The notes beneath the pieces were generated by a model, which saw nothing but the letters and a program-made list of their open reading frames with translations, made no database searches and was not told the DNA's origin. Of a DNA stretch of 59,144 bases, positions 4,424-59,144 are shown one piece after another. Source of the stretch: Hydrurus foetidus (taxonomy: Eukaryota); assembly GCA_900617105.1 (NCBI GenBank), contig UYFQ01000711.1, positions 1-59,144 of the forward strand. The letters run 5' to 3'. Numbering within the stretch: position 1 is the first letter of the stretch; the number at the start of each line of letters is the position of its first letter. Position numbers and translations under genes: made by a program.

Positions 4424-4442
4424 GCAGTCATGGGCAAGGTTC

Positions 4443-6666: not shown

Positions 6667-7321
6667 CTGGTTTCTGATCACTTTCCCAAGCTCAAGGTGA
6701 AAGTGGGTTTGGTGTGGTGTTTAAGGTAATTAACAATGCAACATAGCTTACATCATTTATGGAGACAGTCGAGAAATTCGATCTGTCCCACACAGTCAAA
6801 CATGGTGCACTTTCGTTTTTAATGTTCCTGGATGTGGAAAAAGAACTTGGACCGGTGGATTAGCGACCTCCACGTGGTAACGTAGTGTCCGGTTCATTCA
6901 TAATCGTCTGGCGTCATCATGGGGTCACTTTTATGACATGAAACGATCCTCACCGGCGGTTTAAAAAATATGGATTCCAAAGTAGTACTAATTATACTTA
7001 CCAATTTAAAACAGTCTAAAATAGCCGATTAGTCTATTCTTCATCAGATTCAGGTGCAGCATCTGAGAAAGCACCTTCATCTTCATTTGCGTTGAAATTT
7101 TATTCTTGAGTGATCGATCGGTTGTCATCATAATCGCTTCGTATCATAATTGAGAAAAATAATCTATGGATCCACCCGGACTGCCACTGATGGTTTTATT
7201 TCAAAAAAATGAACAGATGCTTATGAATGAACCAGACACTACGTTACACGACGTACGAAACGTCATTAAAAGTACATACGTAATAACTTATACGGTTACT
7301 TAGCACACAGTTATTCCGACA
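6667..7321 (-). repeat. Diverged Copia LTR related to the LTRs at 47764/53766, interrupted by a MITE and abutted by the Gypsy
   Basis: Shared blocks AAGGTAATTAACAATGCAAC, CTGTCCCACACAGTCAAACATGGTG and ACTTATACGGTTACTTA.CACACAGTTATTCCGACA. Confidence 0.85.
6880..7244. mobile_element. MITE (non-autonomous TIR element, TA target duplication)
   Basis: About 31-bp TIRs ACGTAGTGTC(C/T)GGTTCATTCATAA..., TA on both sides; absent from the homologous LTRs at 47764 and 53766. Confidence 0.9.
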
Positions 7322-7326
7322 CCCAC

Positions 7327-7717
7327 TCTTGGAATAAGGCTGTCTTATGGATCCTGGATCCAGTCAAAGCACCTGGTTGATAGCAGTGATTCGTTTAGAA
7401 CACACTTTGCTTTCAGCTAGTCGACCAAGGTCGCTTCAACAGCTCACTCTAGTGTAGGTATAATGGCACACAGCCATATAGTCTCTTTTAATTAGAAGTG
7501 CTCATTGTGTCAAATCATAGCAGTTCATGGCTAGCTATACTAGCTACAGTTGGCTGTTCACTGTCATCATCAGTTGCAACTTTCAGTACAGTTTGAGTGA
7601 TGGTCTCGGGTCTGTGAGCGCTACCCTCGCTCCTCCACTTGAGCTTGAGTGATATTACCCAAAGGGAATTCCCCCAAAGGGATTGTCCCCATAGGGATAG
7701 CTATGCTATATCCAACA
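7327..7717 (-). repeat. Copia #1 3' LTR
   Basis: Direct repeat of 12833-13223; minus strand TGTTGGA...TTCCAAGA. Confidence 0.93.
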
Positions 7718-7882
7718 CACCCCTAATGTCACAAGCATTCAGGCGGCATATTCATATTTCTTCATAGAAATGTAATCATAAATCGTGTTTGTAACTATGG
7801 TAAGCTATAGTGATCATACAAGTTTTGTTGCTAATAAAAGTTTTAAAAAATAGCTCAACTGTAAGTCAATAATGTGAAGTAC

Positions 7883-10800
7883 TTAATTTCCTAGAATTTT
7901 CTTCACCAACTTGGAAAAAACCGTTCCTTGTAGTGGCTTGGTGTAGTAATCGGATGTCATATCCTCGGTGGGCACGTAGACAATGTTTACGGCACCGATA
8001 CGGATGTAGTCTGAGATCCAGAATTGTCGTACCTCAATAAACCGGGTGGTCTCTGCGGTAGACCGACCTTTTTTCAGCAGCGTGATGCATGACTGATTGT
8101 CTTGTTCCAGCCTCACTGGGTGTTTTCCATGTCCTTGGTATGCAATAAAACCAGCAAGCCATAGCGGAATGTTCATTCCGTCGGAAACCGCAATGATCTC
8201 GGACTCCGTACTTGACTTGGAATTCAGCTTCTGGACCTTGGAACTCGAAATAAAATTCCCCACCCCTAATGTGACACACATTCCTGAGGTTGATTTCATT
8301 TGCTCTCTGTTAGCAAATGCAGCATCAATTGATACTGTGACTGTCATTGGCAAAGTGCAACCGAGTCGTAATGGCTTGTCTCTAGTAGCCCTCAGATAGC
8401 ATATGAGCCTATCGAGTTTCTTGTCGTCTTCTGTTGTCGGTGCCTTTACACGTTTGCACAGTTCACCCAACACTAATACAATGTCTGGGCGTGTTCGGTT
8501 CCCCAGGTATAGCGCCGTAGCAACGTCGGTGTGAAAGGTTTTAGCGTCTTTCTCATTCAGGAATTTGCAGTCCAAGGTCCGCTCAAATAGGTGTGGGGCA
8601 CCCGGTGATGATGGGTCTCCGATGAGCTTCATACCGCGTTCAGCATGGCTTTTTTCCCTTGATGATATCAGATCTTGGATCATCCCGATCTGTGTTACCT
8701 TTACAAATCTAGGCTCAGTGTAATCCCACATGCAGCCTAGGTACGGTAGAATGCGCTCTTGGGTGGTACGGAATTGGCCGTACGTTTTCAGCAAAATCTT
8801 TTCCATGTCAAGAACCGCTTTCTTGTCCACGCATGTCATCTTTAGATCATCTACGTAGACTAGGATCGTAAATTGGTTGCCTTTGACGTCCTTGTTGAAG
8901 ACGCAAATATCGCGCGGGTTAGCCGTGAAACCATTTGACCGTAGGGTTCCGGCTATCTCGTTGTACCATAGTTTAGCAGACTCAATACACCCGTATAGTG
9001 CTTTGTCCAGTCTCACCACCAACCCTCCATTGTGTCTTCTGAAGGGCGAAAAAGATTTGTCTTGTTTGATGATGGCGTCGGTCACATTCTTATCAATATG
9101 CATATTATGAAGGATTTTATCCGGTTTATCCATAGGCATGTTGGCGTTGAGGTACGCGGACCCAACGTCTCCGACCATGATGAAACGGTTTTCCGCAGCA
9201 GCAATCTGTGCAACTGTAAATATAGCAGCTATGCTCGCTGTCGGTGACTCAACTTCATCTGCAGCATAGTCCTCTCTGACTTGTGCACGCCCATCCACAC
9301 AGAAGGGCGCCTTGACCTTGTCGATTTGGCGATCGCCATTCGAGTTTAGTGTTGGAAGGTATTTCTCCACAACATTCATGTTCGAACGGAGGATCTTCTT
9401 TGTCTGAGTAGGTGTGAGTTGTTCCATGTGGACTCCTGAAAATGTCCCCTTTGCCAGTAGTGATTTGACCTCTGACTCAATGGCTGCGGTAGCCTTATCC
9501 GGGAAAAGTTTCAATGCCCGGGTAACTGTCATAAGTGACCAGTCACCCCTAATTCCTTCTTTCTGCGCTGGAATAGGTAGTTTGTCAGCTACTAAGTTGA
9601 GTCTGTCTGGTGGCTTTCGAATTCTCGTCGACTTCTCACGCAATTCAACTGGTGCACTAGGTATGTACGTACGTACTGCGGTGGTAGGTGGTGCCTCTGG
9701 TTGCTCCTCCGGTACCGCTTCAAATGTAGTTTCTGGCCCGGATACTTCGTCGGAAGTCAGATTACTAGTATTTTCAGCACCCGCCGATTCCATTTCACCC
9801 CGAATCTCAATTTGGTCTTGAGCAATTTGAGGTTCCATCATGGTATGAGGCGTGTCGGTTTCATCCGGGAACACCGGTAAGATTGGAGGTGTAGGTTGAA
9901 ACGGGATTGTTGGCACCGGTATCGAAGGTGAATCGATTGTGACAATATCATCGTCGATATCTCCTGTGATGTCTTTATCATGGAAAGTGAATATTGGTTC
10001 TTTCGATGTATGTATCTTGTTCTTCGATGCCCACCCATTTACAGTGGTGGTGACGAGTGGTGGTATCGGTAGCACCACATAGTGGTTGGCCGATATGACG
10101 CTCCTAGTGTCGATGCGCATAAAGGAATGAGTGCCTGTCCCATTCATCTTTGGTTCTAGGTATAGGCATCCAATGGTTCTTGGATCCATGTTGTTGCTAA
10201 GCACCCTCCCGGTGACTTGGCAGTATGACCCGAACGGTGGTCCAATATCTTTTTTCGTGTCCGCCTTTCTACCAAAGAAAGCTTCGAAAGGGGAAATTCT
10301 ATCTGTCCTCGTCGATGAGGGAAAGAGTAGTAACTTCTTCGCAGAGGCTGTCACAAGGTAGGACATGAGTATGTCAGGCAGTAGGTACGGTAGACTGAAG
10401 ATGGTACAGCGGATGGTCTCCTTTAGGTGCCTGATCATTCGTTCAATAATGTGATCATGTTGCCCTGGACCAACCGCAATCACTTCGACACCCATGGCGT
10501 TCATGTCGTTGAAAAGTGCAGCGATGCCTCGCTCATTGTCACTTGTAAATTTCACGATGGAAATTCGTCGGGACCCGATGGTGCCGAACATACGCTTGAG
10601 GCTCTGTCTGAGCACCGGCGTTGTAACATTGTCAACACAGCCGACCAAAACAATTCCCAGTGGATGGGTAATCGAAACTAGGAATGGCTGCTTATTTATG
10701 AACATGATGTCACAATGCATGTGTTGCGCATCAAAGTTTCGTGTCGTAGTAGGTAGCTGTGGTGGTGGCATAGGCCTCAGCCGAGTAGTGCGTCCTTTGA

Positions 10801-12805
10801 GTGACGCCGTGTTTGCTCCCCAAATTTCTGTAGCACGTGCGACATCTTCAGGTAAGATGTCGCAGTTGAGAAACGTTCCAGCTCGCAATGCAGAAATGAA
10901 TTTCTGATCTGGTGGAAATCCCAAACTCGCTTGCATGCGTCGTGCATCAGCGCTTCTTTGAACTTCGCGTTTCGTGAATTTGGCTTCGTTGGCGTCCGTT
11001 GTAGGCAGTTTTGTAGAGTAAAATATGCTTGTAGATGGTGTTTTTACCACTGCCGGATGAGCATATGCATTTCTGCGCTCTGCGGCGTCAGAATATCGCG
11101 GCTCCGGAGGCACCGCCAAATCGGCGACATATAGCCCTCCACGATGTTGGAATTTGTAGGTGCTCTGATCAGTGTGGAGCAGAAATGCATCCTGATCTAT
11201 CATAGAACCCTGGCGAAACTCCCAGTTGTGCCCTTGCAACAGGCAATCGGATGCCGATACGATGGAAAGTCCAGCACGCGGATCAAAATGAACGATGCCA
11301 ATGTCACGAAGGTTTCCTGCTTTAGTTACAGTAAGCGAACCATGCAAGCCTTTGAACACAGTAGGAGTGCATGTCGCGATGTCACTCAGAACATCCGCAC
11401 ATGTAATGATGGTGCCAGTAGCTCCAGTGTCAAAGATGGCTTCGGAGGTACTATGTTGGTTGATGTTACGGTTTGCAGAAAAATCGGTCCGAGGACCGAG
11501 GGTTGCGACTTCCACCGGTGTGGTGGTATAGCACACGCTACAGTGCCTGTCGCCATGTTCATTCTCGTTAACCTCTTGATCCCACATTTGGCCAAAAGCA
11601 GTGTAGACATCTCCTTGAGCACTGGGGTCATCTTCCTCAGTTTGTCTCCTCGCCGACATTGATGTTTTTGGGGCTGAAGGAGGCTCTCCGGCGGCCTTCT
11701 TTCTGCACTCACTAGCACGATGACCTGCTTTTCCACAGTGGTAACAAATCCCACTGAACTTGCCCTCCTTTGTATCTTTAGCAAAGGACACTTTCGGCTC
11801 TTTAATCTTTGCCGGGTTAATCTTCTTGGCCTTTTCTTTAGCGGGTGGTTTTTCGCCCTTTGGGGGACCGCCCGGTTTCGTGAGGTTCTTTGCTGCAAGT
11901 GCCGTTTGGTGAGTCACTATCGCTGATTGTAATGCACTACCCTTTACCCCACGATGGAATCTAGTTGCTCCGTTGATGGCTTCCATCAGGGTCTTCGGAT
12001 AAATGTCAATCTTGTTGCACTCCAAATAATTGCTGAGATAGTTCTTGTAGTCATGATAGACCTGTGAGGTACTACTCAACCCCTCAATTAGCTTTGTCGC
12101 TTGTTGGACAGCATTTGGAATCTGCGCTTCCGGTACTCCTGTTGCAGCGAGTCGATCGAAAAGCTTGACCGCACGTCGTCCGTACGGTACGATGTCTTCA
12201 CCCGTACTCATAGTCAGCGTGTACCAGTCCCGTAGGGCCTGGGACCGCTCGAATTCCTGATTACCATCACATCTTGATGTAACAACTGACTTGATAACTT
12301 CAAGTAGTTTAAGTGGATCGTCGAGTTCGACTGCTATGAATTCCGCTTTTACTGTCAGAATCGCGTTGAGCGATGGTGAACACATCGTACGAATCAGGCG
12401 GTATGCCGATTCACGGTCATCCATCTGCTGCATTCTCCTTTTGTTCACTAATGCTCTGTCGGTATTGATGTCATTCATCATCATCTTTGCTCGATATCCC
12501 TTCGGATCCGTGATTTCAGTGAAGGATTCCAGCAATGTGAAGTTGGGCGGTTTGAAATCGTAAACCTTGTAGGCAGGTCTAATAGTGAGCAGCATGGGGT
12601 CTGGACAGATGGTCTGGAGGTCCTGAAAGTTGATTCTCATGTACTCTTTCAGTTTCAACATAGTGTCGTCCCACTCTTTCCACCCGTTGTGGGTTATCTC
12701 AGGCAAACTTTCTGGCCTCAAGCCATCTGCGATTGCTGAACTTTCGCGCTTTTCACCCTTCTCGGATTTCGATTGGGCAGCGCCTTTCTCGCCTCGCTGA
12801 CTCAT
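7883..12805 (-). CDS. Copia gag-pol polyprotein, 1640 aa, uninterrupted
   Basis: CYHCGKAGHRASEC knuckle, IFDTGAT protease, IN (HCDIMF, SDNE, IERMIR), RT (LDKALYG, YVDD), RNase H (IDAAFA, SSTESE, DNQS, DYYTKPL). Confidence 0.96.
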   Translation of the reverse strand: MSQRGEKGAAQSKSEKGEKRESSAIADGLRPESLPEITHNGWKEWDDTMLKLKEYMRINFQDLQTICPDPMLLTIRPAYKVYDFKPPNFTLLESFTEITDPKGYRAKMMMNDINTDRALVNKRRMQQMDDRESAYRLIRTMCSPSLNAILTVKAEFIAVELDDPLKLLEVIKSVVTSRCDGNQEFERSQALRDWYTLTMSTGEDIVPYGRRAVKLFDRLAATGVPEAQIPNAVQQATKLIEGLSSTSQVYHDYKNYLSNYLECNKIDIYPKTLMEAINGATRFHRGVKGSALQSAIVTHQTALAAKNLTKPGGPPKGEKPPAKEKAKKINPAKIKEPKVSFAKDTKEGKFSGICYHCGKAGHRASECRKKAAGEPPSAPKTSMSARRQTEEDDPSAQGDVYTAFGQMWDQEVNENEHGDRHCSVCYTTTPVEVATLGPRTDFSANRNINQHSTSEAIFDTGATGTIITCADVLSDIATCTPTVFKGLHGSLTVTKAGNLRDIGIVHFDPRAGLSIVSASDCLLQGHNWEFRQGSMIDQDAFLLHTDQSTYKFQHRGGLYVADLAVPPEPRYSDAAERRNAYAHPAVVKTPSTSIFYSTKLPTTDANEAKFTKREVQRSADARRMQASLGFPPDQKFISALRAGTFLNCDILPEDVARATEIWGANTASLKGRTTRLRPMPPPQLPTTTRNFDAQHMHCDIMFINKQPFLVSITHPLGIVLVGCVDNVTTPVLRQSLKRMFGTIGSRRISIVKFTSDNERGIAALFNDMNAMGVEVIAVGPGQHDHIIERMIRHLKETIRCTIFSLPYLLPDILMSYLVTASAKKLLLFPSSTRTDRISPFEAFFGRKADTKKDIGPPFGSYCQVTGRVLSNNMDPRTIGCLYLEPKMNGTGTHSFMRIDTRSVISANHYVVLPIPPLVTTTVNGWASKNKIHTSKEPIFTFHDKDITGDIDDDIVTIDSPSIPVPTIPFQPTPPILPVFPDETDTPHTMMEPQIAQDQIEIRGEMESAGAENTSNLTSDEVSGPETTFEAVPEEQPEAPPTTAVRTYIPSAPVELREKSTRIRKPPDRLNLVADKLPIPAQKEGIRGDWSLMTVTRALKLFPDKATAAIESEVKSLLAKGTFSGVHMEQLTPTQTKKILRSNMNVVEKYLPTLNSNGDRQIDKVKAPFCVDGRAQVREDYAADEVESPTASIAAIFTVAQIAAAENRFIMVGDVGSAYLNANMPMDKPDKILHNMHIDKNVTDAIIKQDKSFSPFRRHNGGLVVRLDKALYGCIESAKLWYNEIAGTLRSNGFTANPRDICVFNKDVKGNQFTILVYVDDLKMTCVDKKAVLDMEKILLKTYGQFRTTQERILPYLGCMWDYTEPRFVKVTQIGMIQDLISSREKSHAERGMKLIGDPSSPGAPHLFERTLDCKFLNEKDAKTFHTDVATALYLGNRTRPDIVLVLGELCKRVKAPTTEDDKKLDRLICYLRATRDKPLRLGCTLPMTVTVSIDAAFANREQMKSTSGMCVTLGVGNFISSSKVQKLNSKSSTESEIIAVSDGMNIPLWLAGFIAYQGHGKHPVRLEQDNQSCITLLKKGRSTAETTRFIEVRQFWISDYIRIGAVNIVYVPTEDMTSDYYTKPLQGTVFSKLVKKILGN

Positions 12806-12832
12806 TCTGAGCTAGCTAGCGGCTTCTAATTA

Positions 12833-13223
12833 TCTTGGAATAAGGCTGTCTTTTGGATCCTGGATCCAGTCAAAGCACCTGGTTGATAGCAGTGATTCGT
12901 TTAGAACACACTTTGCTTTCAGCTAGTCGACCAAGGTCGCTTCAACAGCTCACTCTAGTGTAGGTATAATGGCACACAGCCATATAGTCTCTTTTAATTA
13001 GAAGTGCTCATTGTGTCAAATCATAGCAGTTCATGGCTAGCTATAATAGCTACAGTTGGCTGTTCACTGTCATCATCAGTTGCAACTTTCAGTACAGTTT
13101 GAGTGATGGTCTCGGGTCTGTGAGCGCTACCCTCGCTCCTCCACTTGAGCTTGAGTGATATTACCCAAAGGGAATTCCCCCAAAGGGATTGTCCCCATAG
13201 GGATAGCAATGCTATATCCAACA
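12833..13223 (-). repeat. Copia #1 5' LTR
   Basis: Direct repeat of 7327-7717, ending 27 bp upstream of the ATG. Confidence 0.93.
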
Positions 13224-17717: not shown

Positions 17718-17759
17718 CTCTCTGACCCTGTTGAGTTTCTCTTTACTCTCCTCAGGTAG

Positions 17760-19490: not shown

Positions 19491-19499
19491 GGTTTGAAA

Positions 19500-23549: not shown

Positions 23550-23552
23550 ACG

Positions 23553-29164: not shown

Positions 29165-29619
29165 AAAATTTCGCAAGGAATTTCGTATACAAGCCTCTTG
29201 TACTTTGGATCTGAAAAGGAGCGGCTCGCACCGGTTCCGATCCGACTTCGATCCAGAGAATCCAATCCGCAAGTGCACTAGTTCCCGGCGTCACTTAAAT
29301 ATTATGAAAATTTCGGTAGTAGCTCACCTCTCAACTTTCGTTTCTCCAATCCCGCTTCTCAACTTTCGTTTCTCCAATCCCGCTTCTCAACCTCGAACAC
29401 TTCTCAACTCTCGCTTCTCAACTACATTCACTTCTCAACTCTCACTTCTCCAATAATAAATGAAAGATGAAAAAGTGAAATGAAAAATGAAAGAAAACGG
29501 CAAAAACGGAACACCGTTACACCGCATTAATTTGCTACAGCTCCACACTGATTGAATCTATTTTTTTAATGCTATGATAGCGATAATTTGTCATATTAAA
29601 TTGACAAAATAATTCTATT

Positions 29620-31716: not shown

Positions 31717-31984
31717 TGTTGAGAAGTGAGAGTTGAGAAGTTGAGAAGCGAGAGTTGAGAAGTGTTCGAGGTTGAGAAGCGAGATTGGAGAAATGAAAGT
31801 TAAAAAGTGGGATTGGAAAAAATGGGTCCTAACCAAAATTTCACCTACGGTACTGAATGTACTGAACATAGTGCCAAGAAGTAAGAAGGGAGTGACAGAT
31901 CACAGGGATTCCAAAGCTTATGGATGGAAGCATCTCATCGAATAGAGAAACACCAAACTCAAAAGCTGCCTGAATCCTCGTGAA

Positions 31985-35486: not shown

Positions 35487-35719
35487 TATGTTATGCCCAT
35501 GCCCTACGGGGTTTTTTTGTAGAAAGTGAAAGTGCTACCCACTCCACTCACGATGTAGAGGATATTGTGAAAATTTCACCTACGGTACTGAATGTACTGA
35601 ACATAGTGCCAAGAAGTAAGAAGGGAGTGACAGATCACAGGGATTCCAAAGCTTATGGATGGAAGCATCTCATCGAATAGAGAAACACCAAACTCAAAAG
35701 CTGCCTGAATCCTCGTGAA

Positions 35720-37397: not shown

Positions 37398-38898
37398 GGC
37401 AGCCCATTTTACTCGATCAGTTTGTGGCATGATATGCACAACAATTGCATCCGAGGTATGGGAGGCGAATTACAAGGTGTACAGTTCGTCACTACAATTG
37501 CAAGTACGTACGTGCACCAGCTACGGATGAGATCAGGAAGCAGCGTTACATCTGCAGCAGATAGAAGGCCACTACGATCGTATCGTATGTAAATGCTGAT
37601 TGCACATCAGCGCTCACAAGCCTCAGAATCAATTTGACAAGGAGACAACTTTATGGAGTTATGAAGATTGTCGTCCTTGATGTCTTGTGATTCCCAAAGC
37701 AACACAATGAGTCACTGTGATGCTGTACAGTGTGATCTACTCAAAATGCCAAGAGGCTGTCAACATCACCCACTAAAGTCCCACATGTCCCCACAATACA
37801 ACTTAATTTCACATTATTTATCAACACATTTGTAAGATATCTGTTCGGTATGTCAGATATTTATGTATGTTCTTAAAAGCCAGCTGTCACAAGAACTTCC
37901 ATCTGGCATTACATTACATCTCATTTATTACGTTTCCTAGTAGGCCAAATTTTATAGACTAGATTAATTTCATGATATGTGCACTGCCTACAAACCCATT
38001 CAATTCACTCTGCATAGCTATCAATATCTACCACACCCTCGTTGAAGAGACACGTTGAGGTCGGTCGACACCCTTCTCATCTCTACCCTCCTCCGATTCC
38101 CCCTTCCCTCTATATCCATCCCAACTGCAGTCTAATTAAATTTAAGTAACACATCCTTTTGGTAGCACAGAGTCATTCAATTTTGCCTTCTCGTAATGTT
38201 ACAGTATATCAGGAATTTTAGATATTCCAACCTAAAAATGTTCCTCTAGATTCTACATAATCTTGCCCTGGAAGATGCCTCTTTGCACTTCACATTTTTG
38301 TGTGCGAGCGCATTCTGGGCTCAAGGAAATACGGAAAATTAAAAGGCGTAATCAACTGGTGGTGTGAAAAGATTCTGTGGAAAAGCCCTTCGTTTACTGC
38401 CTACTGCAATGGCATTCATCGACTAAGGCCCCGGATATCAGCTTGAGAATGGTTTCCTGTAGCTGGTACCATCTAGCGCTCCTGTTTGTCAGCTCAATCT
38501 GACAAAAACGGGTGTTGATGCGGTGGTGTGAGGATCCTCCTGCGTGTCCCCAGTCGTCCCGGCCCCCTGTGCAGCCTGTTGGACTCCGAGACCCGAGACC
38601 CGACCGTTTTTATTGGAGAACAACTTTGTGCCGTTGTACGTTGTACAGAAACAAAAATAATATGTAGGTCCGACAGCAGTTGAGTTCGGTTGCTTTTAGC
38701 ATGTTCAGCAACAATGCCATGAATGGAGTCCTAAACTTTGGCATATTATCGTTTTCTCTTGAAGAGCAGGGGATTCCTTCGCGAGGAAATTTTCATCGGT
38801 GTCAAGGCCATGATTGAATGGATCTCTGGCATCGATAAGCAATAAAAGCACTGTCATCACTATAATACAACCCCTCAGTCAACTCTAGCCCGGTTGAA

Positions 38899-43727: not shown

Positions 43728-46700
43728 CTACATCTGGAATTTGATGGCTGTATGACGCATCACTTTTTTAATTTTTGGATTTGACTCACATCCGTGTTCT
43801 GTCAAGAAATCAAGTAGAGCGTTGAGATGTTCTTCCCTAAAAGGTTTCAGGGTCACGCAGTCCGCCCCTGCCTTCAGAAATGCATCCACGTCATCGTCTA
43901 GCGCGTTACCAGTGAGTCCTATGATAAGCCCTGTGTAGCCCAGAGATCGTATAATCGATGTTGCTTCAATGCCGCTCATAACGGGCATAGTGTGATCCAT
44001 GAAAATGACGTCATGCACTGCAGGCCGCCTCGCCCCTGCGTCCGTTGAAGGAACCTTGTACAGATCCACAGCTGCTTGGCCGTCATACGCGATGTCGCTG
44101 TCGATGCCCTTACGTCTCAGCAACATCTTCAACATCTTGCAGTTAGATGCGGTATCATCCACCAGTAAAAATCGCAGCCTCCTGTCTTTGAAGCTCCCTG
44201 CGCAGGACATCCCAATCACGGGCCTGCACGCTTCAGTAACACTGCTCGCCCCTGTCACCGCCCTTGATGGCATCTTCACCAACTGGCCGTATACTAGCTG
44301 TCCGGTTACTGACCGTATTTGAACTATCTCCCCCATCTGAATCATTTTAATGTCTTCATCCTCCATCAGTGCTTCATCATGTAGACATGTCATACTAACA
44401 CTTGATTGAAAGCTGGAGCCAATTGCATTGGACTCATTCGCAGATCGGCCTACAAAGCTGTTTTCTTTGCTTTTCAGTCTCCCTATAGTAGTATCTGCAT
44501 CACCTGTGTTCCTGGGCCCCCTCGGATGGAGGGCTGATTTGCTGCTAGATGATCGGAGCACGTTGGGTATGTTGAACGCAACGCTCTTTATCGAACTAGC
44601 GAAGGATTCAAGTGCTGGGAACCGACCGCTAAGATAGGCTTTCTCAGTGGTTTGAAAAGGAATGGAAAACCCAAAAGTGCTCCCCTTCCCCGCCTCGGAC
44701 GAGAATATTATTTTGCCCCCATGTAGGGTCACTACTCTTTTAGCGATGACCAGTCCCAGACCTGATCCCCTCCCATCGCTCTCTTTGTCGTGGGGTCGAA
44801 TCTGGGCAAAGGCGTGGAAAAGTTTTCTCTGTACCTCCGCGTCCACTCCAATACCGTTATCAACAACGAGAATCTTAATTGTCACAGGGCGTTTCGGTGA
44901 TTTGGATCGCATTTTTGATATTTTCTCTTTCATGCTCGTTATGCTGAATTTCCTCATTTCATTAGAGTAGGAATGTCGCTGCCCGTGTGGGGAAACTCTC
45001 GATCTCTTCGCACCTTTGTAGGATCGTGATATGTCTCTCTTTCTGCTGACTGACGTCACAAATGACTCCGACACTGATTGCATGAATGAAGTCTTCTGGG
45101 AGTTGATCACACTCAGCACTATGGTGGAGTCTGGTGCGGAGAACTTTATCGCGTTTTTGAGAAAATTGATAACGACATGTTTCAGCTTTGCTTGATCTCC
45201 AATGAGATGTGTCTTGTTCGATGCAAATATTGCGCCGGAATCATCTTTAATGATATGTATCGATTTTTGATCTGCTTTGCTTTTGATTTTGTGCAGAACA
45301 CTGTCAATGAGAGCATCCAATTTAAACGGTTTCAAGTGTAGCGCCATATCCCCGTCCTCAATTTTGCTCATACTCAGGACGTCATTCAGTGTGTCATTCA
45401 TGAACCCTGCTGCATTATCCATCATGCTAACGACATCTTGCTGGGAAACAATAATATCATCCTTCAATATCGATATTCCCATTGTGATCGTATTTAAAGG
45501 GACTCTCACTTCATGGAAAACATACCGTAAGAATTCTTTCCTACTGTCGCTGACCTTTTTCTCGGATGCAGATTGAAGTATTTTTGATTCCAGAGATAGG
45601 ATTGATATATACGCCATTTTCAGTAGTAGACTGGCTGCCATATTTGCAGCTATTGCATCGTCTGTCTCGAGATGGTTGAGAAAATCTGAGAACATTCATT
45701 TGCAGTGATGGAAGGGTAACACATGTTAAGGAAAAATTATGCATCATTTGAAATAGAATAATTCGAAGTGAATCATATAGCATAGTGTTGTATTTTATTG
45801 TATCACAGCGCATTTATTAGATTGCGTTGTATTTCAGTGAATAGCATATCACGTTATCGCATAACACATTTCATGTCGGTGCACAACATTACGTAATGCA
45901 GAAGATAGAAAGAAGCGGATGAGACACAATAGCCATCGACCAGTCTGCAGTATATGTCACGTAAACAATACTATGCACTCCTTAAATGATTCGGCATGAT
46001 ATAATATGAGAAGTAGTAGTAGTATGAGGGACCTAGGAACTAAAATACTAAAATTTCTAGAAATGCACAACAATGTCCCAAACCTAATGACAAATCGTTC
46101 TGCTAGTAGATGTCATCGAGTGCAACATGACGCGTTAGCATACACATAAATTTCATGCTTACCTAGGGTGTATATCACAGGAAAGAAAGGAAGCACCACG
46201 AAAAGGAGCCACACAAGTTTTCTCTTCAAAGTAAGTCGATCAAGATACCAGCGTTGTGAAAGTTCAACGGACATTCTCAATTTTCTGACAGACCTCTCAG
46301 CTTTAAAGGCCAATAAGATGTTCGCTATATTGGCAAGGAACGAGAAATTGAGAAAAAGATCAGGAAGAGGTTTTATCGATCTTAAAATAGTAAGATCAAA
46401 TTCAAATATGCTAATGCATGATGTAATGTATGATAGGGGTAGTACACAGCTGGCTCTATGACGATGGACTGTGCATACCATACATTTACTAAAATTAATA
46501 GCAGATTTCTGACTGGTCTACTTTCTATTTCCCAGGCTATTTACTTCAAAAGATGGAACAGATAATAGCATTCGTCGCGAAAAAAGTAGTAAAAGGAGAA
46601 TGTACCTGTGGTGCTGAGCAAGGCTGCAGAGAATAATGTGATACCAGTGATGAAGTCTTCCGTGAAGTTATTTGCAAATGCTAGGGCAATGCTTGTAAAC

Positions 46701-47763: not shown

Positions 47764-48129
47764 TGTCGTACGGTTGGCGTTCAGACTCACTGAATGTCAC
47801 ACTAGATCTTCCTGCGTACGCTCTCCTTCTGCAACTTCTGCACGATAGCTAGCAACTGACTCGGCTCGAAGAGAAAGTTCTGCTATTTGTGAGGTTAAAG
47901 GTAATTAACAATGCAACGTGTCTTACATTGTTCATGGAGACAGCCGACAAGATCGCGCTGTCCCACACAGTCAAACATGGTGTACTTTCATTGCTTTCGA
48001 TGTTCCTGGGTTAAAAAGAACTTGGACCGTGTGGAGTAGCGACCCCCACACAGCACACGACGGTGAAACGTCATCAAGCGTACATACGTAATGACTTATA
48101 CGGTTACTTAACACACAGTTATTCCGACA
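47764..48129 (-). repeat. Copia #2 3' LTR
   Basis: Direct repeat of 53766-54131. Confidence 0.96.
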
Positions 48130-48746
48130 CACCCCTATGGCGTGAGTCGTCGGGTAGGGGCTATGTGGATGATTAAAACGCAAAGATAAAATTCAAAATT
48201 GCTCCTTTGACTAGGAGTCATGTATCACAGCATGATGTTTTAGGGTAGGGAGTTAAGGTAATGGTGAGGTTGACCTTTAGGGTGAAGGTAGATACGTTAG
48301 TACACACAGGGTAATATTAGTATCGTACGTTCTGGCTGAAACCGTACGAGCAGTAGAGTTAAACAATGCGGGAGTGATTTTATAGTCAAACAATAGTATG
48401 CTATAAAAATCCTCTCAGCTTTCTGATTGATTAAAGTGATCGAATCTGAATTTCGATCCAGGGTCCAGTCCAGAGTCCTCGCTCCATATAAATCCGATTC
48501 AGGGTCCGGGGTCCTTGGGTCAGGATCCTCTCGCAGTGGGATGTGGGCACGTCTTGTCCGTGTTGTCCGTACGTACATCTCCTGATAGTGCGCGCAGCAG
48601 TCGGGTAGTAGGTAAAGAAGGATGGGCAGCAGTAATGTTGGAAGGGCAGCAGAAATGACGGGGGGTAGCAGATCGGACGGGAAATGGCAGTAGGTATGAC
48701 AGGGGCAACAGGGGTGGTCGGTTCGATGGTGTGAATCGGCCGGGTC

Positions 48747-51700
48747 TCAATTTCTCTTCTTGACTCCTCGTTGAGTCGTTGTAGGTTTAGATGGGTAGGG
48801 GAAGTTGGGGTTGAAGTTGGCTTTTGTTCGTGAGTAAGTCACGGTGCTGTTGGCGCTATCCTCGGTCTTGCAGCCTTCTGCGTAGGTGACGGATGGGGTG
48901 GTGGTGTTTAATAGCTCCTTCCTGAGCTTACGGAATAGTTCCCCTTGTAGTGGCTTGGTTAGGATATCAGCTGTCATGTCTTGTGTAGGTAGGTATTGAA
49001 TGTCGATGTCTCCGGTGCTCAGTCTGTCGTGTAAGAAGAAGTACCGTATGTCGATATGGCGCGTACGTTCGCTGTTCGAACGTCCGTTCCGAATCAGCTG
49101 TATGGTAGACTGGTTGTCTTGATGGATTAGTGCAGGTGGTTGGTGGTGTCCTTGACAGTGTAGGAAGTTTCGTGTCCACAGTACTTGGTTGGCGGAGTCG
49201 CTAAGTGCAACGAGCTCGGCTTCCGTGCTTGATTTGGTCATCAAGCGCTGTGTGCCGCTCTTGGCGTACATCGCTCCCTTTCCCAGGGTAATTACGCAAC
49301 CTGTGTGGCTTTTCATATCGGGATGTATGGCGAAGGATGCATCGACATATGCAATCACATGTATAGGTTCATGTGCTTCAAATGTTACACCCAAGTTCTG
49401 GGTATCCCGTATGTACTGTACCGTACGGATCAACTTATTATAGTCGTCCCTTTGGGGCTTAGTCACTCTCTTGGTCAGGAACGCTACGGCTGTCAGAATA
49501 TCTGGCCTCGTCCTCTTGCTCAGATAGAGTAGCTTCGCTGTAATAGAATGGAAACGCTCACGCAAGTTGTCGGGTAAGGGTGAGTCACATTCGTTAGGTA
49601 CAGTGAATAGGTTAGATTGTGCAGGTGTGTTAGCCTTGCCAGGCATATCCTTACACCCCTCAATGAGGTCTTGCACAAATCCTTCCATAGTCATCTTGAC
49701 GCTGCCTGCCTTAGTAAAGTCAAATGTCATACCTATATAGTTTAGAACTTTGCCGCGGTGTTTAGTTAGACCGGGGTATATAGTTTCAATTTGCTGAATA
49801 ACATCGTCAACGCGAGATTCATTTGAAGCAGTGATAATCATATCATCAACATGAATTACGAGTGAGGTTTGTGTGTTATCTGATTCAGTTCTGTTAAATA
49901 CGCAGATGTCATATTCATTAGCAGTATAATTGAGTTTAATCAAATCATTGGATAGATTATCATACCATAGCTTAGCAGATTCAACGCATCCATATAACGC
50001 TTTTTTAAGTTTAACTATACAAGTTCCATTGTTGTTAATGTATTTATTGTATGTGGCATCAATATCAATTAGTGCCGCAGTCAGTTGTTTGTTCAGACGC
50101 ATGTATACAACATGGTCTCCGGTCAGCGGCATATCACTATTCAGGAATGCACCGGGGAAGTCAACAGTGGCAACAGCACGGTTCTGTCTAGCAGCAATTG
50201 CAGTCAGTATGAATACACTAGATGTGCTAGCAGTAGGTGATGCGCCGTTATTATAAACGTCTCTATCTTGTAAGTGCCCACCGGCGACTAGTCTAGATTT
50301 AAGTTTTTCGAACATGCCATCAGCAGTATACTTTTCTTTCAAGAACATGCTACTAGGTATAATGGTGCGTTTTTGTTGTGGGGTGAGGGATTCATAAGTT
50401 ACACCTTCCCAAACATTCTTATCACACATTTGTTTCAATTCAGATGTGATGGAATCAACAGCTATCACCCCTAACTTATTAATACCTTCATTAACAGTCA
50501 TTTTGTACAGGTGAGTGTGGTTGTAGAACAGATTACCAACATATTTCTTATCCCATTTACCAAGTTGGTGATTTCTACCACTTCTACGTAACACGGGTGA
50601 GTTTACAACAGGTGGGTCATATGCGGTTTCAATTATAGTGGCAGGTGGTGTGAATACTTCAGTGTGTACGGTTACATCAGCAAAGTCGTCTTCATCATCA
50701 CTTATACCAAATATGTCATCTATCAGTGCTTGATCATATTTCGGTGTGGGCACATGTGTATCATCATGTGTGTCATCATAATATAGTTGGTCATTGTCAT
50801 ATGTATTGTCATTCACATATAGTGTGTCATCTACGTACTCATCTAATGTGGGTGGGTGATTTTCGTCATTCATGTCAAGTTGTGTTTCATAGACAGCTTC
50901 TTCGACACTATATTTATTGTCTATGGTACCGTCAGTTTCTACTGCGTAGGCAGGTTGTTCTGTGGTATCATATTCGATATCACCAATGTATTCAGAATCA
51001 TCTTCGACATCGTCATCATCATCAAACACAATGTGACTACTATTCTCGAATACAGGCTGTTTAACATTGGCAGTTTTTCTTTTTGAAGCTAATACATTCA
51101 GGTGTAATATCACTTCGTCAGGCATGGGTAGTACAGTCGCTTTAGTACGTTTCACAATACGTTCGTTAGATAGCAACATATAGTACCATGAACCTTCTAG
51201 ATTGCCGGAGCTCATAAGTGCTATGGCCCCGGCTGTTCTTGGTTTGGTAGAATTATCAATGACATCATTATGCACTTGAACATAATCACCAAAGCCATGT
51301 TTAATCTCCTTGTCTACATCTAACTTTCTTCCGGTTAATTTCTCTCTCGGGCTGATGTGACTAAGTGAGTTACGTGTGGGAGCTAATACAATTCGGCTGA
51401 CTGCATATTTAACTAGCCACACTTCCAGTTTCTCATTTAGGGAGAATGGTAGAGAATTGATTACTGATCTAACCCTCTCCTTTATATGCCGTATCTTACG
51501 TTCAACTACGGCTACGGCTTCTCCGGCTCCGGTAACGTCTAATACTATACCTCTTAGACCGACTTTGTTGTGAAACCATTCAGTGTTAATTGCACCCTCG
51601 CCATCTACTCGGATCATCTTAACTCTGAATCTATACTTTACCATGCTTGCTAGTGAAGTCTTCATGCTGTTCCATATGCTTTTGTGTTCTCTGTTCGCTA

Positions 51701-52630
51701 ACTTATTAACGTATAGAAACTCAATAGGCTGAACAACTGATACTAGGTATGGTACTTGATTAACGAACATTATATCTACATACATAATCTGTTCTGTCTT
51801 GTACTCTATACCTATCAATGGTAACTTCTCTTCTAACTTTGCCTGATGACTAGTGGTCTTCCCCTTAAGGGATCCCACATCCGGTCCCCATATATCCATG
51901 GCTCTGTGTACGTCTCGCGCAGTCACTTTGCTATTAGTCAAATTCCCTTGGGATATCAACTTAATAGTCTGTGCTGCGCTAGCGTAACCTAATCTACGCT
52001 GGTAGTCTCTAGCTAACGACGCGTCTCTGACTTCTCTCACTGTATACTTCTTCTTGTTTTGTTCTACTGTCGTAACTAACATTGGCATGCATTCTGTTAC
52101 CATAGTGTCAAGATTGCATTGGTATATATTCATAGTCTCATCTCGTGAGAATCTATAAAAATATTGTCCACTGACATCTTGCACTATGTACAATCATGGT
52201 CATGTAAGTACTTAACGTCAGTACAGTCACGTACAGCATTACCGAAAGATAGTATATTACCAGCACAGTCAGGGCTATAATACACATTGCCGAACGCCGA
52301 CACCCCACATTTCTTAATTATTAACGGTTTTCCTTTCGGATTCACCCCGCTAACAATCATGGGTGTGGGTGCGTGTTCGACACTGTACAGCAGGGATGAG
52401 TCGTTGAATACCGACTCACCAGCACATGTATCAAGCAGTATGTGTCTACTTCTAATCATGTTATATATATTACATGTATTAACACTAAAAACAATATGAT
52501 CACATGTTTCAATTCCGCTAGTGGAATCAGCCAAACATGGAGGATCGGTGCGTGTATGTATAAGTGTGTGCGGGAATGTAAGTGTGGGTGAGTGTACAGG
52601 TGAGGAATAATGTATCTCGGTTAGTTTACC
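48747..52630 (-). CDS. pol: Copia #2 pol (PR-IN-RT-RNase H), one frame break near 52190
   Basis: LLDTCAGES; IN YVDIMF/VDGE/VERKIR; RT KSRLVAGG, LKKALYG, HVDD; RNase H YVDASFA, SSTEAE, DNQS, ADILTKPL. Confidence 0.92.
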
Positions 52631-53731
52631 GACTTTCCACTGGGTGCTGGTGCACCCGCTTGGCTATCCTTGGCCGTGCACTCGTAAGAGTAGTGTCCGG
52701 CTTCACCGCACTGATTACAGTTCCCGGGACGGGTGCCGTACGACGTACGCCCACCCTTCCCTCTGCCCCCGTTCCCACTGGCTTTCCCTTTCTCAGCCCC
52801 AGGTGGTTCTCACCTCCAGCCGTTTTCGTCGCAAAACGTTGGTCTGGTTGGGTGGGACTGTGCCCGCCGGTTTCTTAGGCGTGACCTTCGCCATCTCGAG
52901 GTACGCGTCCTCTAGCGTGTCCGGCCAGTCTTTGAGCCTATGCTCGTAGTATTCTACGTAGTGCCGGTACCCAGAATTCAACCCATTCATGAATTTCATT
53001 CCAGATAATATCTCGTTATGGGCGGTCATAGCCTCGTTGTATTCTGGCATGACCCCTAGGGCACGCATGGTGTCCTCATATCCAGTCTTCAGCGCTTTGA
53101 AGCGCTGGTAGTAGAACTTCAAGACGTCGTTTGGCTCCATTTTCACAGTCTCGTACGCCATGCGTACTCTCAGCAAATTCTGATCCGCACCTAGTCTCGG
53201 GTCAGACAGGTGGGTCAGAATAATTGCTCGGAGTAGCAGTAGCGGATCCTCCTCTAGCATGGCTGTGATGCCCGATTCCGTCTCTCTTATAGTCGATTTC
53301 GACTGTTCACTGATCTGTCCCAGCATGAGACCGAAAACTTGTTTTCGGTCCTCCCTTAGTGTCAGGACTAGCTTGTCGTAGAGCTCTAGTGCTCTCTTCC
53401 ATTTGGTAGCGGCCATAAACCCAGCATCGAGAGGTATGTCTACCGGAGCGACATATTGCGGGTAAGTACCCGGTATGCCCTCATTGCCGAATATCTCGCA
53501 GATATCGGACTTGTAGTTTGCGCGTGTGTATTCGCGAAACTTTCTCATCCATGCGCTTACGCTACCATGGTTCATCTCTCTTCCAAGATCCAGGAATGCG
53601 CCGATCGCGGCTACCGTCCCTGTTCTTGGTGGAGGCTTCGCACCGCGGCCAGCATTCCCTCTGCCACTGTTGGCAGGGTTTGCTCGACCGCCTGCGGGAT
53701 TGTGATCTCGGCCTCTGCCTCTGCCTTTCAT
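52621..53731 (-). CDS. gag: Copia #2 gag, frame break near 52830 before the zinc knuckle
   Basis: RG-rich N-terminus, similar to Copia #3 gag; CNQCGEAGHYSYEC in the downstream frame, which ends in TAA at 52621. Confidence 0.85.
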
Positions 53732-53765
53732 TGCAGGTTGCAAGTTTGAAAGCAATTGTTAATTA

Positions 53766-54131
53766 TGTCGTACGGTTGGCGTTCAGACTCACTGAATGTC
53801 ACACTAGATCTTCCTGCGTACGCTCTCCTTCTGCAACTTCTGCACGATAGCTAGCAACTGACTCGGCTCGAAGAGAAAGTTCTGCTATTTGTGAGGTTAA
53901 AGGTAATTAACAATGCAACGTGTCTTACATTGTTCATGGAGACAGCCGACAAGATCGCGCTGTCCCACACAGTCAAACATGGTGTACTTTCATTGCTTTC
54001 GATGTTCCTGGGTTAAAAAGAACTTGGACCGTGTGGAGTAGCGACCCCCACACAGCACACGACGGTGAAACGTCATCAAGCGTACATACGTAATGACTTA
54101 TACGGTTACTTAACACACAGTTATTCCGACA
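53766..54131 (-). repeat. Copia #2 5' LTR
   Basis: Direct repeat of 47764-48129. Confidence 0.96.
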
Positions 54132-54155: not shown

Positions 54156-54508
54156 TGTAGTAATATCAGTATTATGTAGACTAGATATTCCGTATACGAA
54201 TTGTGATGCTATTATCTGTATTTCATATTTGAACCACACGTACGGTGTTGCACCACAGCAGTACCGTACTACATATGATATGACGTATTTGATCTAGCAT
54301 AGCCATCAACCTGTTGCGACAACTACCGACTACACTCGACTACTACTGCGTTGCAGCAGTGCTAATTAACCCAAACTCGTAGCCGACAGCGATACTTCTC
54401 TTCTGAGTCCAGACAGAGTGAGTGAAGCCGCATCGGAGAGTGCAGTGGGGAGCTTGTGACCAACCGTATGGGACATACGTCACACCTTTGAGTCCACATT
54501 TCACAACA
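54156..54508 (+). repeat. Probable 5' LTR of Copia #3 (left boundary inferred)
   Basis: TGTAGT...ACAACA, followed by TAATTA as in Copia #1 and #2. The partner LTR is outside the window. Confidence 0.65.
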
Positions 54509-54546
54509 TAATTAGCACTTCATCGTTTCAACAGGAAGTTGCAACG

Positions 54547-55770
54547 ATGAAAGGACGTGGTAGTCCACAGCAACAGCTGGGACGTGGACGAGGCTACTTT
54601 GGAGGTCGTGGTGGCAGAGGATCACCAGCGACTCCAAACCACTACCGTGGTAACATTCCAACCATCGGAGCATATTTGGATCTACCACCTGGGAAGGACA
54701 TTGCCCATGGAGCGGTTACCAAATGGATGGCGAAAATGAAGGAGTACGCTATGACGACTTATAAGTCGAGGGTTAGCATGATCTTCGGCGCTGACGGCAC
54801 CCTGGGTGATTACCCAGTGTATGCCTTGCCAGATCAACCTGGTGCAGATGCATCAGTATACGATACAACTATATGGAAACTAGAAAGAACTGAATACCAG
54901 AGCAACCTTAAAACGCTCGAACAAGATAAGACAAACTTGTACGGAGCAATGTTAGGACAAATGTCCGAAAGCTCCAAGACAAGAATTGGAGAGGTACTGC
55001 TCGGAGTGGAAGCAGGAAATGAATTCGAGCCTAGGAAATTGCTTCAAGCAATTCTGGTGACACATATAGGAGATTCTACATTAGGAGTACAGCATCAGAT
55101 GTACGTGATAACACAACGTTACAACGACCTAGTGATGGGTAGCCATGAGAATCTCAGCATGTACCTCACGAGCACAAAGTCAGCTCTCACTGCTATTCAG
55201 CAGGCGTATGAGATGACTGGCCGTGAAGGATTAGATGAATTGTATCCAGAAGGACAGATGGCCGTCAAGTTTATACTGGGGTTGAATAACAGTTATAATG
55301 AATTCAAATCATTCTTTACAAACGGACTTAAACCTTGGCCTGATTGCCTTGAGTCAGCTTACCAAGAAGCGGCCAAATACAATCCCAAGAGGGCAGCTGG
55401 GAATTCACACGCTGCCATGGAGAGAGCGAATGCCTTCGCTATGACTGGCAGAGGAAACAAAGGCGGCAGAGGAGGATACCCAGGAGGGCACAACGGTCGT
55501 AGTGCACCAAATGCTAGGTGGGTGAAGGATGGCGCTGACTCCCCCGAGGGAGGTAAGAGCGATAGGGGCTCACCGATCGGAGCTTACACAGCAAACAAAT
55601 CCCCACCAGCGGGGTACAGACGAGGCCCCTGCAACAACTGCGGGAAGTACGGTCACCTTGCGGCAGAGTGTAGAGGGGAACCCGCGGACACCCATGTGGA
55701 GTACTGGAAGGATCCCGGATCGAAATCCGGCGGGGGGAAACTTAACACACCACCTGGAAAGGGAAAGTAA
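54547..55770 (+). CDS. gag: Copia #3 Gag, 407 aa
   Basis: RGG-rich termini and CNNCGKYGHLAAEC knuckle. Confidence 0.92.
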   Translation: MKGRGSPQQQLGRGRGYFGGRGGRGSPATPNHYRGNIPTIGAYLDLPPGKDIAHGAVTKWMAKMKEYAMTTYKSRVSMIFGADGTLGDYPVYALPDQPGADASVYDTTIWKLERTEYQSNLKTLEQDKTNLYGAMLGQMSESSKTRIGEVLLGVEAGNEFEPRKLLQAILVTHIGDSTLGVQHQMYVITQRYNDLVMGSHENLSMYLTSTKSALTAIQQAYEMTGREGLDELYPEGQMAVKFILGLNNSYNEFKSFFTNGLKPWPDCLESAYQEAAKYNPKRAAGNSHAAMERANAFAMTGRGNKGGRGGYPGGHNGRSAPNARWVKDGADSPEGGKSDRGSPIGAYTANKSPPAGYRRGPCNNCGKYGHLAAECRGEPADTHVEYWKDPGSKSGGGKLNTPPGKGK

Positions 55771-58700
55771 GTGGTATACATGATTCTTTACATGATGTTT
55801 CAGTTAGAAATGTTGATATTGATGTGACTCGTGAAAAAATGCAAATGAATAAACATGTGAGATTTTCTGACTGTATATATATTAAAATTATAGATGATCC
55901 ACAGACAAAGAAAAAGACAGCCGTAGTCGATAGTGCAGTTTTCAGTTTAGATATAACGAATAATTCTGATGTTTTTTCCGATAATCAATTGTTGCTTGAT
56001 ACATGCGCTGGCGAATCCGTGTTTAGAACCGCTACACTGTTCTATGACATTGTGCCTGCTGTTACACCCATGATAGTTAATGGAGTCAATAGTAGAGGAG
56101 AGCCGATGGTTATAAGAGAGTGCGGTACGACGGACTTTTGGATTAGTATACTTTGACCCTAATTGTATAGCCAACATCTTGTCTTTTGCTAACATGGTAA
56201 ATAATTGTTACTCTATGAAGTATAGTAGTGGGAGCGATTTTTACAGTCTGCAGATTAAAAGAGGAGGATGCTGTTACTATTTCAACAGAGATGAAAAATA
56301 TAATATATATATATGTAACTTAGACACCATGGTAAGTAAGCCTAAGTTGATGTTAGTTACGACAGTTACAGATAAGATGAAGAAATATACAGTTAGACAG
56401 GTAAAACAAGCTGAGTTAGCTAGAGAATATCAGAGGAAATTAGGATATGCCAGTCCCGGTCAGGTAATTAAGCTTATAGGACAGGGTAAACTAGTTAACA
56501 GTGACATTACGGCACAAGATGTCGTTAGATCTTTAGATATCTGGGGTCCTGACTTAGGCACCCTAAAGGGGAAAACGCCAAGCCATCAGGCACAGGTTGA
56601 AGAAGAACAACCATTGTTAGATAACATACAAGACAGAGATCAGATTATGTACATAGATATTATGTTTGTCAACGGCAATCCATTTCTAATTGCCGTTGTA
56701 AAGCCATTAGAATACGTTATGGTGAATAAGTTGAATAATAGAGCTAATCTTACACTATGGACTAGCTTAGAGAGCGATATCAGGCACATAACTAAGTACG
56801 GATTCAGTTTAAATTTAGTTAGAGTTGATGGAGAGGGCGCCATCAATTCAGTATGGTTTGAGACTAAGTTAGCTACAATAGGTACTGCATTAGACACGAC
56901 GGGTGCAGGTGAGGCAGTTACCGTAGTTGAGCGTAAGATCAGACAGATTAAAGAAAGAGTTAGAGCAGTAATCAATACACTACCATTTTGATTAACGGAG
57001 AAGTTAGAAGGATGGTTAGTTAGATATGCTGTTAACCGAATAGTGTTAGTTCCGACAAGGAACACCGTAGACTTCGTCAGCCCCAGAGAGAAACTATACG
57101 GTAGGAAGATAAACGTAGACAAAGAACTGAAACACGGTTTTGGTGACTATGTCCAAGTGCATTCTGACAATATTGATAATAGTAATAAAGCCAGAACTTC
57201 AGGTGCTATCGCTCTGATGAGTAGCGGCAATCTAGAAGGATCTTGGTATTACATGTTACTCAGTAATGAACAGATAGTTAAACGCACTAAAGCCACATCA
57301 CTACCTATGCCTGATGAAGTTATTACTTACCTAAATGGATTATCTGATAAGAGAAACATTAGTAAGGGTAATAACACTAATCAACCTGTATTTGAACAGA
57401 ATAGGCGGGTGATTGATGATGATGGACTTGATTATGATGATCATAAAATCTATAATAATAATATGAGAAGATTTAGTAATTCACACATACCACATTCAGA
57501 TGAAATGTATGATGACTCATATGATGTTGAACCACTTGTGATACCTGAACTGTCTGATGTGCCAGTGATGACTGATGAAAATAATATTAATGATATGCCT
57601 GATAATGATGCCATGATGGATGATTATGCAGTGCAGCTAGATACTGATGATGCTGATTTTGAACCTGTTGAACATGACGATGTTGCGATGGAATATGATG
57701 CACCTGATGTAAACAGCACGTACGTTGATGACAATGTACTTACATATGATGAAACTGTTGATGCCATAGAAGATACGTACACAGTAGATGACGTACTTAC
57801 AGATGAACTACCTGAGATAGAACAGCCTGCTTTGAGACGTAGCGCTAGAAATCACCAGCCAGGTAGATGGGCATCCAACAGAGGAAATAAGAACATAGGA
57901 TGCTGTATACCTGAAGTGTTGCACCGCCTTGATTGTTCATATGCTTTTAACATGACTGTTAAAGACGGTATCGATAAGTTAGGTGATATAGCTATCGATT
58001 CCATTAGAAAAGAAATGCAACAGATGTGTGAGAAAGATGTGTGGGAAGGAGTGTTGATCAACTCACTAACACCATTACAACGTAACAACATCATAACCAG
58101 TAGTATGTTTTTAAAAGATAAGTATACTGCAGAAGGTAAATTCGATAAGTTAAAATCGAGATTAGTTGCAGGAGGTCATTTACAGGATAGAGATATTTAC
58201 GATAATGGCTCATCACCTACGGTTAGTACCACTAGTGTGTTTATAATTGCTTCAATTGCTGCGAAAGAGAATCGATCATTAGCTACGATAGATTTTCCAG
58301 GAGCATTTTTAAATAGCGATATGCCACTAGAGGGTAGTCACACTGTGTTTATGAGATTGAATAAATATTTGACTGGAGTTTTGACGTCCATTGATAAATC
58401 ATATATGAAATATGTTAATGATAAGGGTACATGCATTGTTAAATTGAAGAAAGCATTGTATGGATGTGTTGAATCTGCAAAATTGTGGTATGATAAAATT
58501 TCACATGACTTGTCCGTATTAGGCTATACTGCTAATGCTTATGACATGTGTGTGTTTAATCGGACTGAAAATAATAAATCACAAACCACATTGATCATCC
58601 ACGTTGATGACATGATGATATCGTGTTGCAATGACAAATATGTTGATATGGTAATTTATGAAATTGAAAAACTGTATCCCGGACTAACAAAACATCGAGG

Positions 58701-59144
58701 AAAAGTACTTAATTACATAGGCATGACTTTTAATTTCGAGACAGCGGGACAAGTGAAGATAACTATGGAAGGATTTATCAAAGAGCTGCTAGAAGACTGC
58801 AAAGAGATTTTAGGGGTGGCACCGACACCGGCCAAGCCGGATTTATTTACGGTTAAACCGGATACCTCTAACTCACTACTAACCACTTCTGCTCGTGAGT
58901 TCTTTCATTCCATTACAGCGAAGCTGCTATACTTAAGCAAAAGAGCGAGGCCGGATATTCTGACGCCGGTAGCGTTCCTGACGAAGCGGGTGACAAAACC
59001 ACAAGTGGACGACTTGAAAAAGCTGGAACGTACCATACAGTACGTACGCCACACTAGAGACCTTGGCCTCACACTACAGATAGAGGACCCCACCACCGTT
59101 ACATGCTATGTTGATGCTTCCTACGGAGTACATCACGACATGAA
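55761..59144 (+). pseudogene. pol: Copia #3 pol with a frameshift near 56140 and a nonsense codon at 56989-56991
   Basis: LLDTCAGES, IN core and RT (KSRLVAGG, LKKALYG, HVDD), start of RNase H (YVDASYG). LPF*LTEK here versus LPFSLNEK in Copia #2. Confidence 0.9.

Follow-up and report, generated by a model that had tools for sequence, protein, structure and literature searches.

To our knowledge, self-priming of reverse transcription has been proven only in Tf1 of Schizosaccharomyces pombe, an LTR retrotransposon of the Ty3/gypsy type. The Tf1 RNA's first 11 bases pair with the primer binding site (PBS), and cleavage by RNase H falls between bases 11 and 12 (PMC7175516). Tf1 also needs helices that flank the primer:PBS helix and together with it form a three-duplex "pretzel" (bioRxiv 2022.12.06.519325). 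For Ty1/copia elements, self-priming has been predicted in the plant lineage TAR for 89% of 203 elements by Neumann et al. 2019 (PMC6317226), who cite an earlier proposal of self-priming for Houba and Osr-1; for the Bianca lineage the same paper gives a half-tRNA-Ile PBS in 92%. The fungal GalEa Copia elements are described as having no tRNA PBS, and in many of their families a palindrome containing TAATTA follows the LTR; the partner of this Conserved Hairpin Site lies 12-41 nt downstream, its sequence is conserved, and the authors saw no complementary stretch within the LTR (PMC5445492). CoDiI and CoDiII (Blackbeard, Surcouf) are divergent protist Copia lineages of diatoms, some of which have gag and pol split by a stop or a frameshift (PMC2806351).

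We analyzed a stretch of 59,144 nt (the window), which consists of repeat-rich eukaryotic DNA and contains three Copia elements with an RVT_2 reverse transcriptase (RT) and the integrase encoded before the RT. The elements belong to the Ty1/Copia group (Pseudoviridae) as judged by their LTRs, target site duplication (TSD), polypurine tract, the pol order protease, integrase, RT, RNase H and the RVT_2-type RT. The integrase region matches the Ty1 integrase 7z0h_W with an E value of 1.9e-9, and an alignment shows RNase H motifs. The features are as follows.

12833..13223, minus strand: element 1, 5' LTR, 391 bp, TG...GA
12995..13005, minus strand: element 1, predicted self-primer; the A at 13005 is unpaired and 10 paired nt follow
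12823..12832, minus strand: element 1, PBS, 10-bp complement of 12995-13004
7883..12811, minus strand: element 1, gag and pol in one open frame of 1642 aa, with zf-CCHC and RVT_2
7327..7729, minus strand: element 1, polypurine tract (7718-7729) and 3' LTR (7327-7717)
53766..54131, minus strand: element 2, 5' LTR, 366 bp, TG...CA; TSD GAAGC
53904..53914, minus strand: element 2, predicted self-primer, 11 nt, preceded by C, first base A
53755..53765, minus strand: element 2, PBS, immediately after the LTR, 11-bp complement of 53904-53914
52793..53731, minus strand: element 2, gag, with a frameshift near the gag end
48747..52663, minus strand: element 2, pol in Copia order (protease, integrase, RT RVT_2, RNase H), with a frameshift near 52190
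47764..48141, minus strand: element 2, polypurine tract (48130-48141) and 3' LTR (47764-48129)
54156..54508, plus strand: element 3, 5' LTR, 353 bp, TG...CA
54358..54368, plus strand: element 3, predicted self-primer, 11 nt
54509..54519, plus strand: element 3, PBS, 11-bp complement of 54358-54368
54547..59144, plus strand: element 3, gag (54547-55770) and pol, with one frameshift and one stop; leaves the window
6727..6737, minus strand: copy of the element 2 primer segment, unchanged, inside an LTR of the element 2 family (7321-6667) that is diverged and truncated, with no PBS remaining

In element 1 (12833-13223 against 7327-7717, 99% identical) and in element 2 (53766-54131 and 47764-48129) a second copy establishes where the LTR ends; element 2 is flanked on both sides by the perfect 5-bp TSD GAAGC. 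Element 3 begins 24 bp from element 2 and has no 3' LTR inside the window. Its LTR start at 54156 is backed by contigs from two runs, which have the polypurine tract of element 2 directly before it, and its LTR end was set from the terminal CA. In the truncated LTR at 7321-6667 the block that holds the primer segment of element 2 is about 82% identical, and the segment itself is intact. In elements 2 and 3 the gag and pol frames are separate and overlap near the gag stop (52600-52640 and 55750-55770), an arrangement that suggests a programmed frameshift, and element 1 has a single frame. Integrases normally need a terminal CA at the LTR. Element 1 has GA at the end of both its LTRs (12833-12834, 7327-7328), and because the LTR of its sister L059 ends in GA as well, we regard this end as a family trait and not as decay.

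A Gypsy element on the minus strand (1-6666), with an LTR of about 416 bp and a TGG-type PBS placed 3 nt past the LTR, lies in the truncated element 2-family LTR, and element 1 lies 5 bp upstream of this LTR, its TSD matching at 4 of 5 bases. Positions 14385-19686 hold a probable DIRS-like tyrosine-recombinase retroelement with gag-, RT- and recombinase-like frames between 187-bp direct repeats; the retroelement gave no Pfam match at 0.001. A DDE_3 transposase of the Tc1/IS630 type and a tyrosine recombinase frame resembling phage integrases are found at 19842-20924 and 23544-24626, a 143-bp tandem satellite with about 29 copies at 97-100% and all three plus-strand frames open at 25000-29300, and another repeat family of 1-3 kb in three copies of 95-98% at 13235-14211, 31835-35048 and 35542-38668. 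Positions 43728-45695 encode a hybrid histidine kinase of the host, with HisKA, HATPase_c and a receiver domain.

An earlier note on this DNA had claimed that in each of the three Copia elements the PBS is complementary to the element's own LTR. We find all six stretches at the positions and with the sequences it had given, as exact reverse complements, and the paired segment lies 172 nt (element 1), 149 nt (element 2) and 151 nt (element 3) from the LTR end, again in agreement with the note. The pairing begins with the base that directly follows the LTR, and it is perfect over 10-11 nt in all three. When the own LTR was shuffled 5000 times with dinucleotides preserved, the length of the self-match was reached 3 times for element 1, once for element 2 and never for element 3, and none of the start points farther downstream equalled it (0/83, 0/116 and 0/130, respectively). 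The triplet TGG, typical of a tRNA PBS, is absent within 0-5 nt of the LTR end in all three elements, as the note had observed. Its observation that TAATTA follows the LTR holds for the window elements, whose PBSs open with this 6-nt palindrome, and fails in their relatives, which do not keep it; TAATTA is therefore rejected as a motif of the clade.

Relatives were sought among proteins and DNA. The proteins belong to a large environmental family, with 103 matches to pol, 115 to gag and 2873 to an RT-RNase H profile. One metagenome contig provided DNA of relatives, as did stray eukaryotic contigs found in prokaryotic genome bins; a scan of metagenomes yielded one locus out of 95 candidates, and three of three scans of viral contigs gave no relative. 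Eukaryotic Copia contigs contaminate several prokaryotic bins (L002-L012, L021, L037, L054-L059, with 15 matches in G001). Six clade members show an LTR/PBS junction (L001, L003, L005, L007, L021, L059). The counts exclude 17 loci without a visible 5' LTR/PBS junction (L002, L008-L011, L013, L014, L029, L033, L035, L038, L046, L054-L058) and six short G001 contigs (L031, L036, L039, L040 and the re-cuts L027 and L032); L004 duplicates L003, L006 duplicates L005, and the rest of L015-L053 consists of re-cuts of the same contigs.

In all six judgeable clade relatives the PBS complements the own LTR, over 11-16 bp and 74-222 nt upstream, with none of 5000 shuffles reaching the match in any of them; most of these self-matches measure 14-16 bp. 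In L001, L003, L005, L007 and L021 an unbiased scan of the sequence ahead of gag gave the PBS/LTR match as the longest inverted repeat. The same feature occurs outside the clade in L012 (2611-2938), whose PBS is self-complementary over 15 bp and whose LTR ends are fixed by two copies. Altogether a perfect PBS complement of at least 10 bp, counted from the LTR end, is present in the own LTR of 10 out of 10 elements (10-16 bp), the LTR end being taken in seven of them from the terminal dinucleotide and the gag position and not from a second LTR. None of these ten has TGG within 0-5 nt of the LTR end, whereas both controls have it: the canonical Copia L037, which shares a bin with L059, carries TGG at offset 0 and has a self-match of 7 bp that is not significant, since 195 of 5000 shuffles reach it, and the Gypsy element of the window carries TGG at offset 3 and has no significant self-match (3 bp, reached by 4632 of 5000 shuffles).

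Although the PBS sequences of the ten elements are all different, the pairing is kept. A 10 x 10 cross matrix gives the own LTR as the best match of every PBS (10-16 for the own LTR, 3-10 for the others). Among the four elements with 11-mers, both sides differ at pairs 5, 7, 8 and 10, and pairing is found in 43 of 44 cells. Between element 1 and its sister L059, whose gag is 46% identical and which shares the unusual GA end of the LTR, pair 5 is altered on both sides; position 11 is paired in L059 and mismatched in element 1. The covariation across related Copia families that the earlier note had proposed to look for is thus found in six of six judgeable clade relatives, and the loss of complementarity that it had named as evidence to the contrary is seen in none of them. 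We hold the PBS/LTR complementarity to be a real and selected feature.

A quick tree of 94 RT rows places elements 1-3 together with L001, L003, L005 and L007 in a clade of 89 rows (SH-aLRT 100, stem 3.0), which stands apart from five canonical-type Copia rows. The tree left out 21 of 103 matches and the frames without an RT core (filtered or not covered); L021 and L059 have no RT core and were assigned to the clade by gag. L012 has canonical Copia motifs and groups with the canonical-type proteins, its position among these outsiders being unsure given the long branches. Its self-match may represent a separate or an ancestral case of self-priming. The integrases of the clade (48747-52193, 56116-56991, 7883-12811) have no Pfam rve match and seem to lack the HHCC zinc finger, with a QRRLGY-type stretch in its place, both unlike L012.

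We then considered whether the paired LTR segment could be the 5' end of the RNA. A CA dinucleotide lies at the start of the segment or 1 nt before it in 9 of the 10 elements, against a background of 9-17% of LTR positions; the nominal P value of 7e-8 is overstated, as the elements are related and the motif is short. For diatoms TCAHW has been proposed as an initiator-like element, and the same source finds it in 68% of 80-nt upstream windows, so that it is a short and common motif (PMC4686930); the segment start fits TCAHW in 4 of 10 elements. A TATA box within 60 nt upstream of the segment is present in one of nine elements, and for oomycete promoters TATA boxes are described as not detected (PMC3599244). 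Because the segment starts at or just after CA, like the diatom initiator, in 9 of 10 elements, it is likely to be the RNA 5' end. For RNAs begun at the segment, the primer:PBS duplex forms with a mean pair probability of 0.93-0.99 in nine of nine predicted folds. In elements 1-3 the duplex is short and rich in A and U (-7.6 to -12.3 kcal/mol), and the stability of the R-U5 fold gives z scores of -2.48, 0.75 and -1.03 for elements 1, 2 and 3, the latter two being not unusual. When flanking helices of the Tf1 pretzel type were sought, 4 of 20 flanking-duplex tests gave p <= 0.05, and none was consistent.

We infer that minus-strand DNA of these elements is primed, as in Tf1, by the first 11-16 nt of the element's own RNA and not by a tRNA, and we put the probability of this reading at about 0.8. 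Transcription would start at the CA initiator-like site at the 5' end of the LTR segment, and the first 11-16 nt of the capped RNA would fold onto the PBS. The 3' base of the segment would then face the first base after the LTR, where RT must begin. A 3'-OH would be freed by cleavage 3' of the paired segment, probably through the element's RNase H as in Tf1, and from it RT would extend across U5 and R to give strong-stop DNA. For these Copia elements RNase H as the cutting enzyme is put forward by analogy with Tf1. The tRNA-independent priming proposed in the earlier note is favored because the pairing covaries across relatives, the geometry is right and the segment has an initiator-like start; speaking against it are the pretzel helices, which are not found consistently, the ordinary R-U5 folds of elements 2 and 3, the short duplexes, the LTR ends taken from the terminal dinucleotide in seven elements and the commonness of the initiator motif.

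Other explanations of the pairing were weighed against self-priming. Chance complementarity among A/T-rich sequences might be invoked for the window, where the matches measure just 10-11 nt and share the 6-nt palindrome, yet the shuffles (0-3 of 5000 per element), the specificity for the own LTR in the cross matrix, the 14-16 bp of most relatives and the negative controls refute it, and we consider its probability negligible. The pairing could also be selected for another purpose, with the segment lying in U3 or inside R and not at the RNA 5' end: the PBS would then pair with the 3' LTR copy or with a second RNA, the genome would be circularized or dimerized in the manner of CYC or DIS elements, and the primer would come from that copy or otherwise. 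The location of the segment at 47-74% of the LTR length would fit the end of U3 or the start of R, and the palindrome that opens the three window PBSs would suit dimerization. However, in 10 of 10 elements the pairing sets in precisely at the base next to the LTR (L003 allows one further base, inside the LTR), a position that priming requires and circularization does not, and in 9 of 10 it ends at CA. The palindrome is gone in L059 and most relatives, so that dimerization based on it is rejected. Taken as a whole we hold this explanation to be unlikely.

Slightly less probable still, in our view, is a primer derived from a tRNA half cut in the anticodon arm, as in Bianca, Osser and Drosophila copia, with the LTR complement only shielding or presenting the PBS. 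With a 2-nt gap, the PBSs of elements 1 and 2 do agree with an anticodon-arm register that ends at tRNA nt 39 (TCT and GTT), and that of element 3 agrees with one that ends at nt 36 (AAT, of the Bianca type). But some register is obtained with 65% of random 24-mers of the same composition, and one ending at nt 39 with 15-19%; L012 and L021 have no register at all, and the sisters element 1 and L059 would require different tRNAs. Lineages using half-tRNAs, among them Bianca, Osser and Bryco, keep one tRNA, whereas the ten PBSs here all differ and each LTR has changed along with its own PBS, which tRNAs could hardly account for. ARAGORN scans of the window and of 15 loci gave no tRNA, and Rfam found nothing in the window.

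The Tf1/sushi group, including Tf1, Tf2 and Tcn1, resembles the elements described here in having a complement of about 11 nt between the LTR and the PBS after it and no tRNA site (PMC7175516). These are Ty3/gypsy chromoviruses with the order RT, RNase H, integrase, whereas the integrase precedes an RVT_2-type RT here; membership in that group is ruled out by the Copia order and RVT_2. The primers of the present clade are 11-16 nt long, A/U-rich and predicted from sequence, unlike the experimentally proven Tf1 primer, and the flanking pretzel helices of Tf1 have no consistent counterpart. In GalEa the hairpin partner is conserved and downstream, whereas here it is variable and sits upstream in the LTR, and assignment to the Conserved Hairpin Site elements is rejected on the location of the partner. 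The TAR elements (Houba, Osr-1) are closer in being Copia and in the form of the match, which was scored there from 10 bp upward, with a start 0-5 nt past the LTR (PMC6317226). TAR is, however, a lineage of land plants with a single gag-pol frame in 79%, and the window elements fall in the 89-row clade apart from canonical Copia, in a tree that contained no TAR sequence; the clade is probably not the TAR lineage.

The RT and integrase motifs of the clade presumably resemble those of CoDi, and no named CoDi protein is among the matches of the homolog search. In the Atlas taxa diatoms are the commonest phylum of the gag look-alike clusters, a weak indication given 1-7 records for each. CoDiI and CoDiII are like the present clade in being divergent protist Copia elements with gag and pol separated in some; priming is not mentioned in the main text of the CoDi paper, whose supplement may list PBSs (PMC2806351).

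The novelty that the earlier note saw in a self-priming Copia lineage was overstated, as self-priming had already been predicted for plant TAR (PMC6317226). For a protist Copia clade we found no report in the literature searched, subscription journals, Repbase and GyDB being outside its reach. It is conceivable, at a little under even odds, that a large, undescribed protist Copia clade, with at least 89 RT sequences in one tree and thousands of matches, primes wholly by its own RNA 5' end and does so without pretzel helices, and that L012, a protist Copia of the canonical branch, does likewise separately. If so, self-priming would have arisen several times in Copia or would be its ancestral state, and the Copia RNase H would cut an RNA:RNA duplex. 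This bears on the question, raised in PMC3601003, whether LTR elements acquired tRNA priming late or had it ancestrally, and it may bear on escape from silencing by tRNA fragments. LTR finders that require a tRNA PBS would be expected to miss or downgrade such elements. The clade is young and of high copy number, it offers natural compensatory pairs and a start predicted to the base, and a first test of self-priming in Copia would be easy in it.
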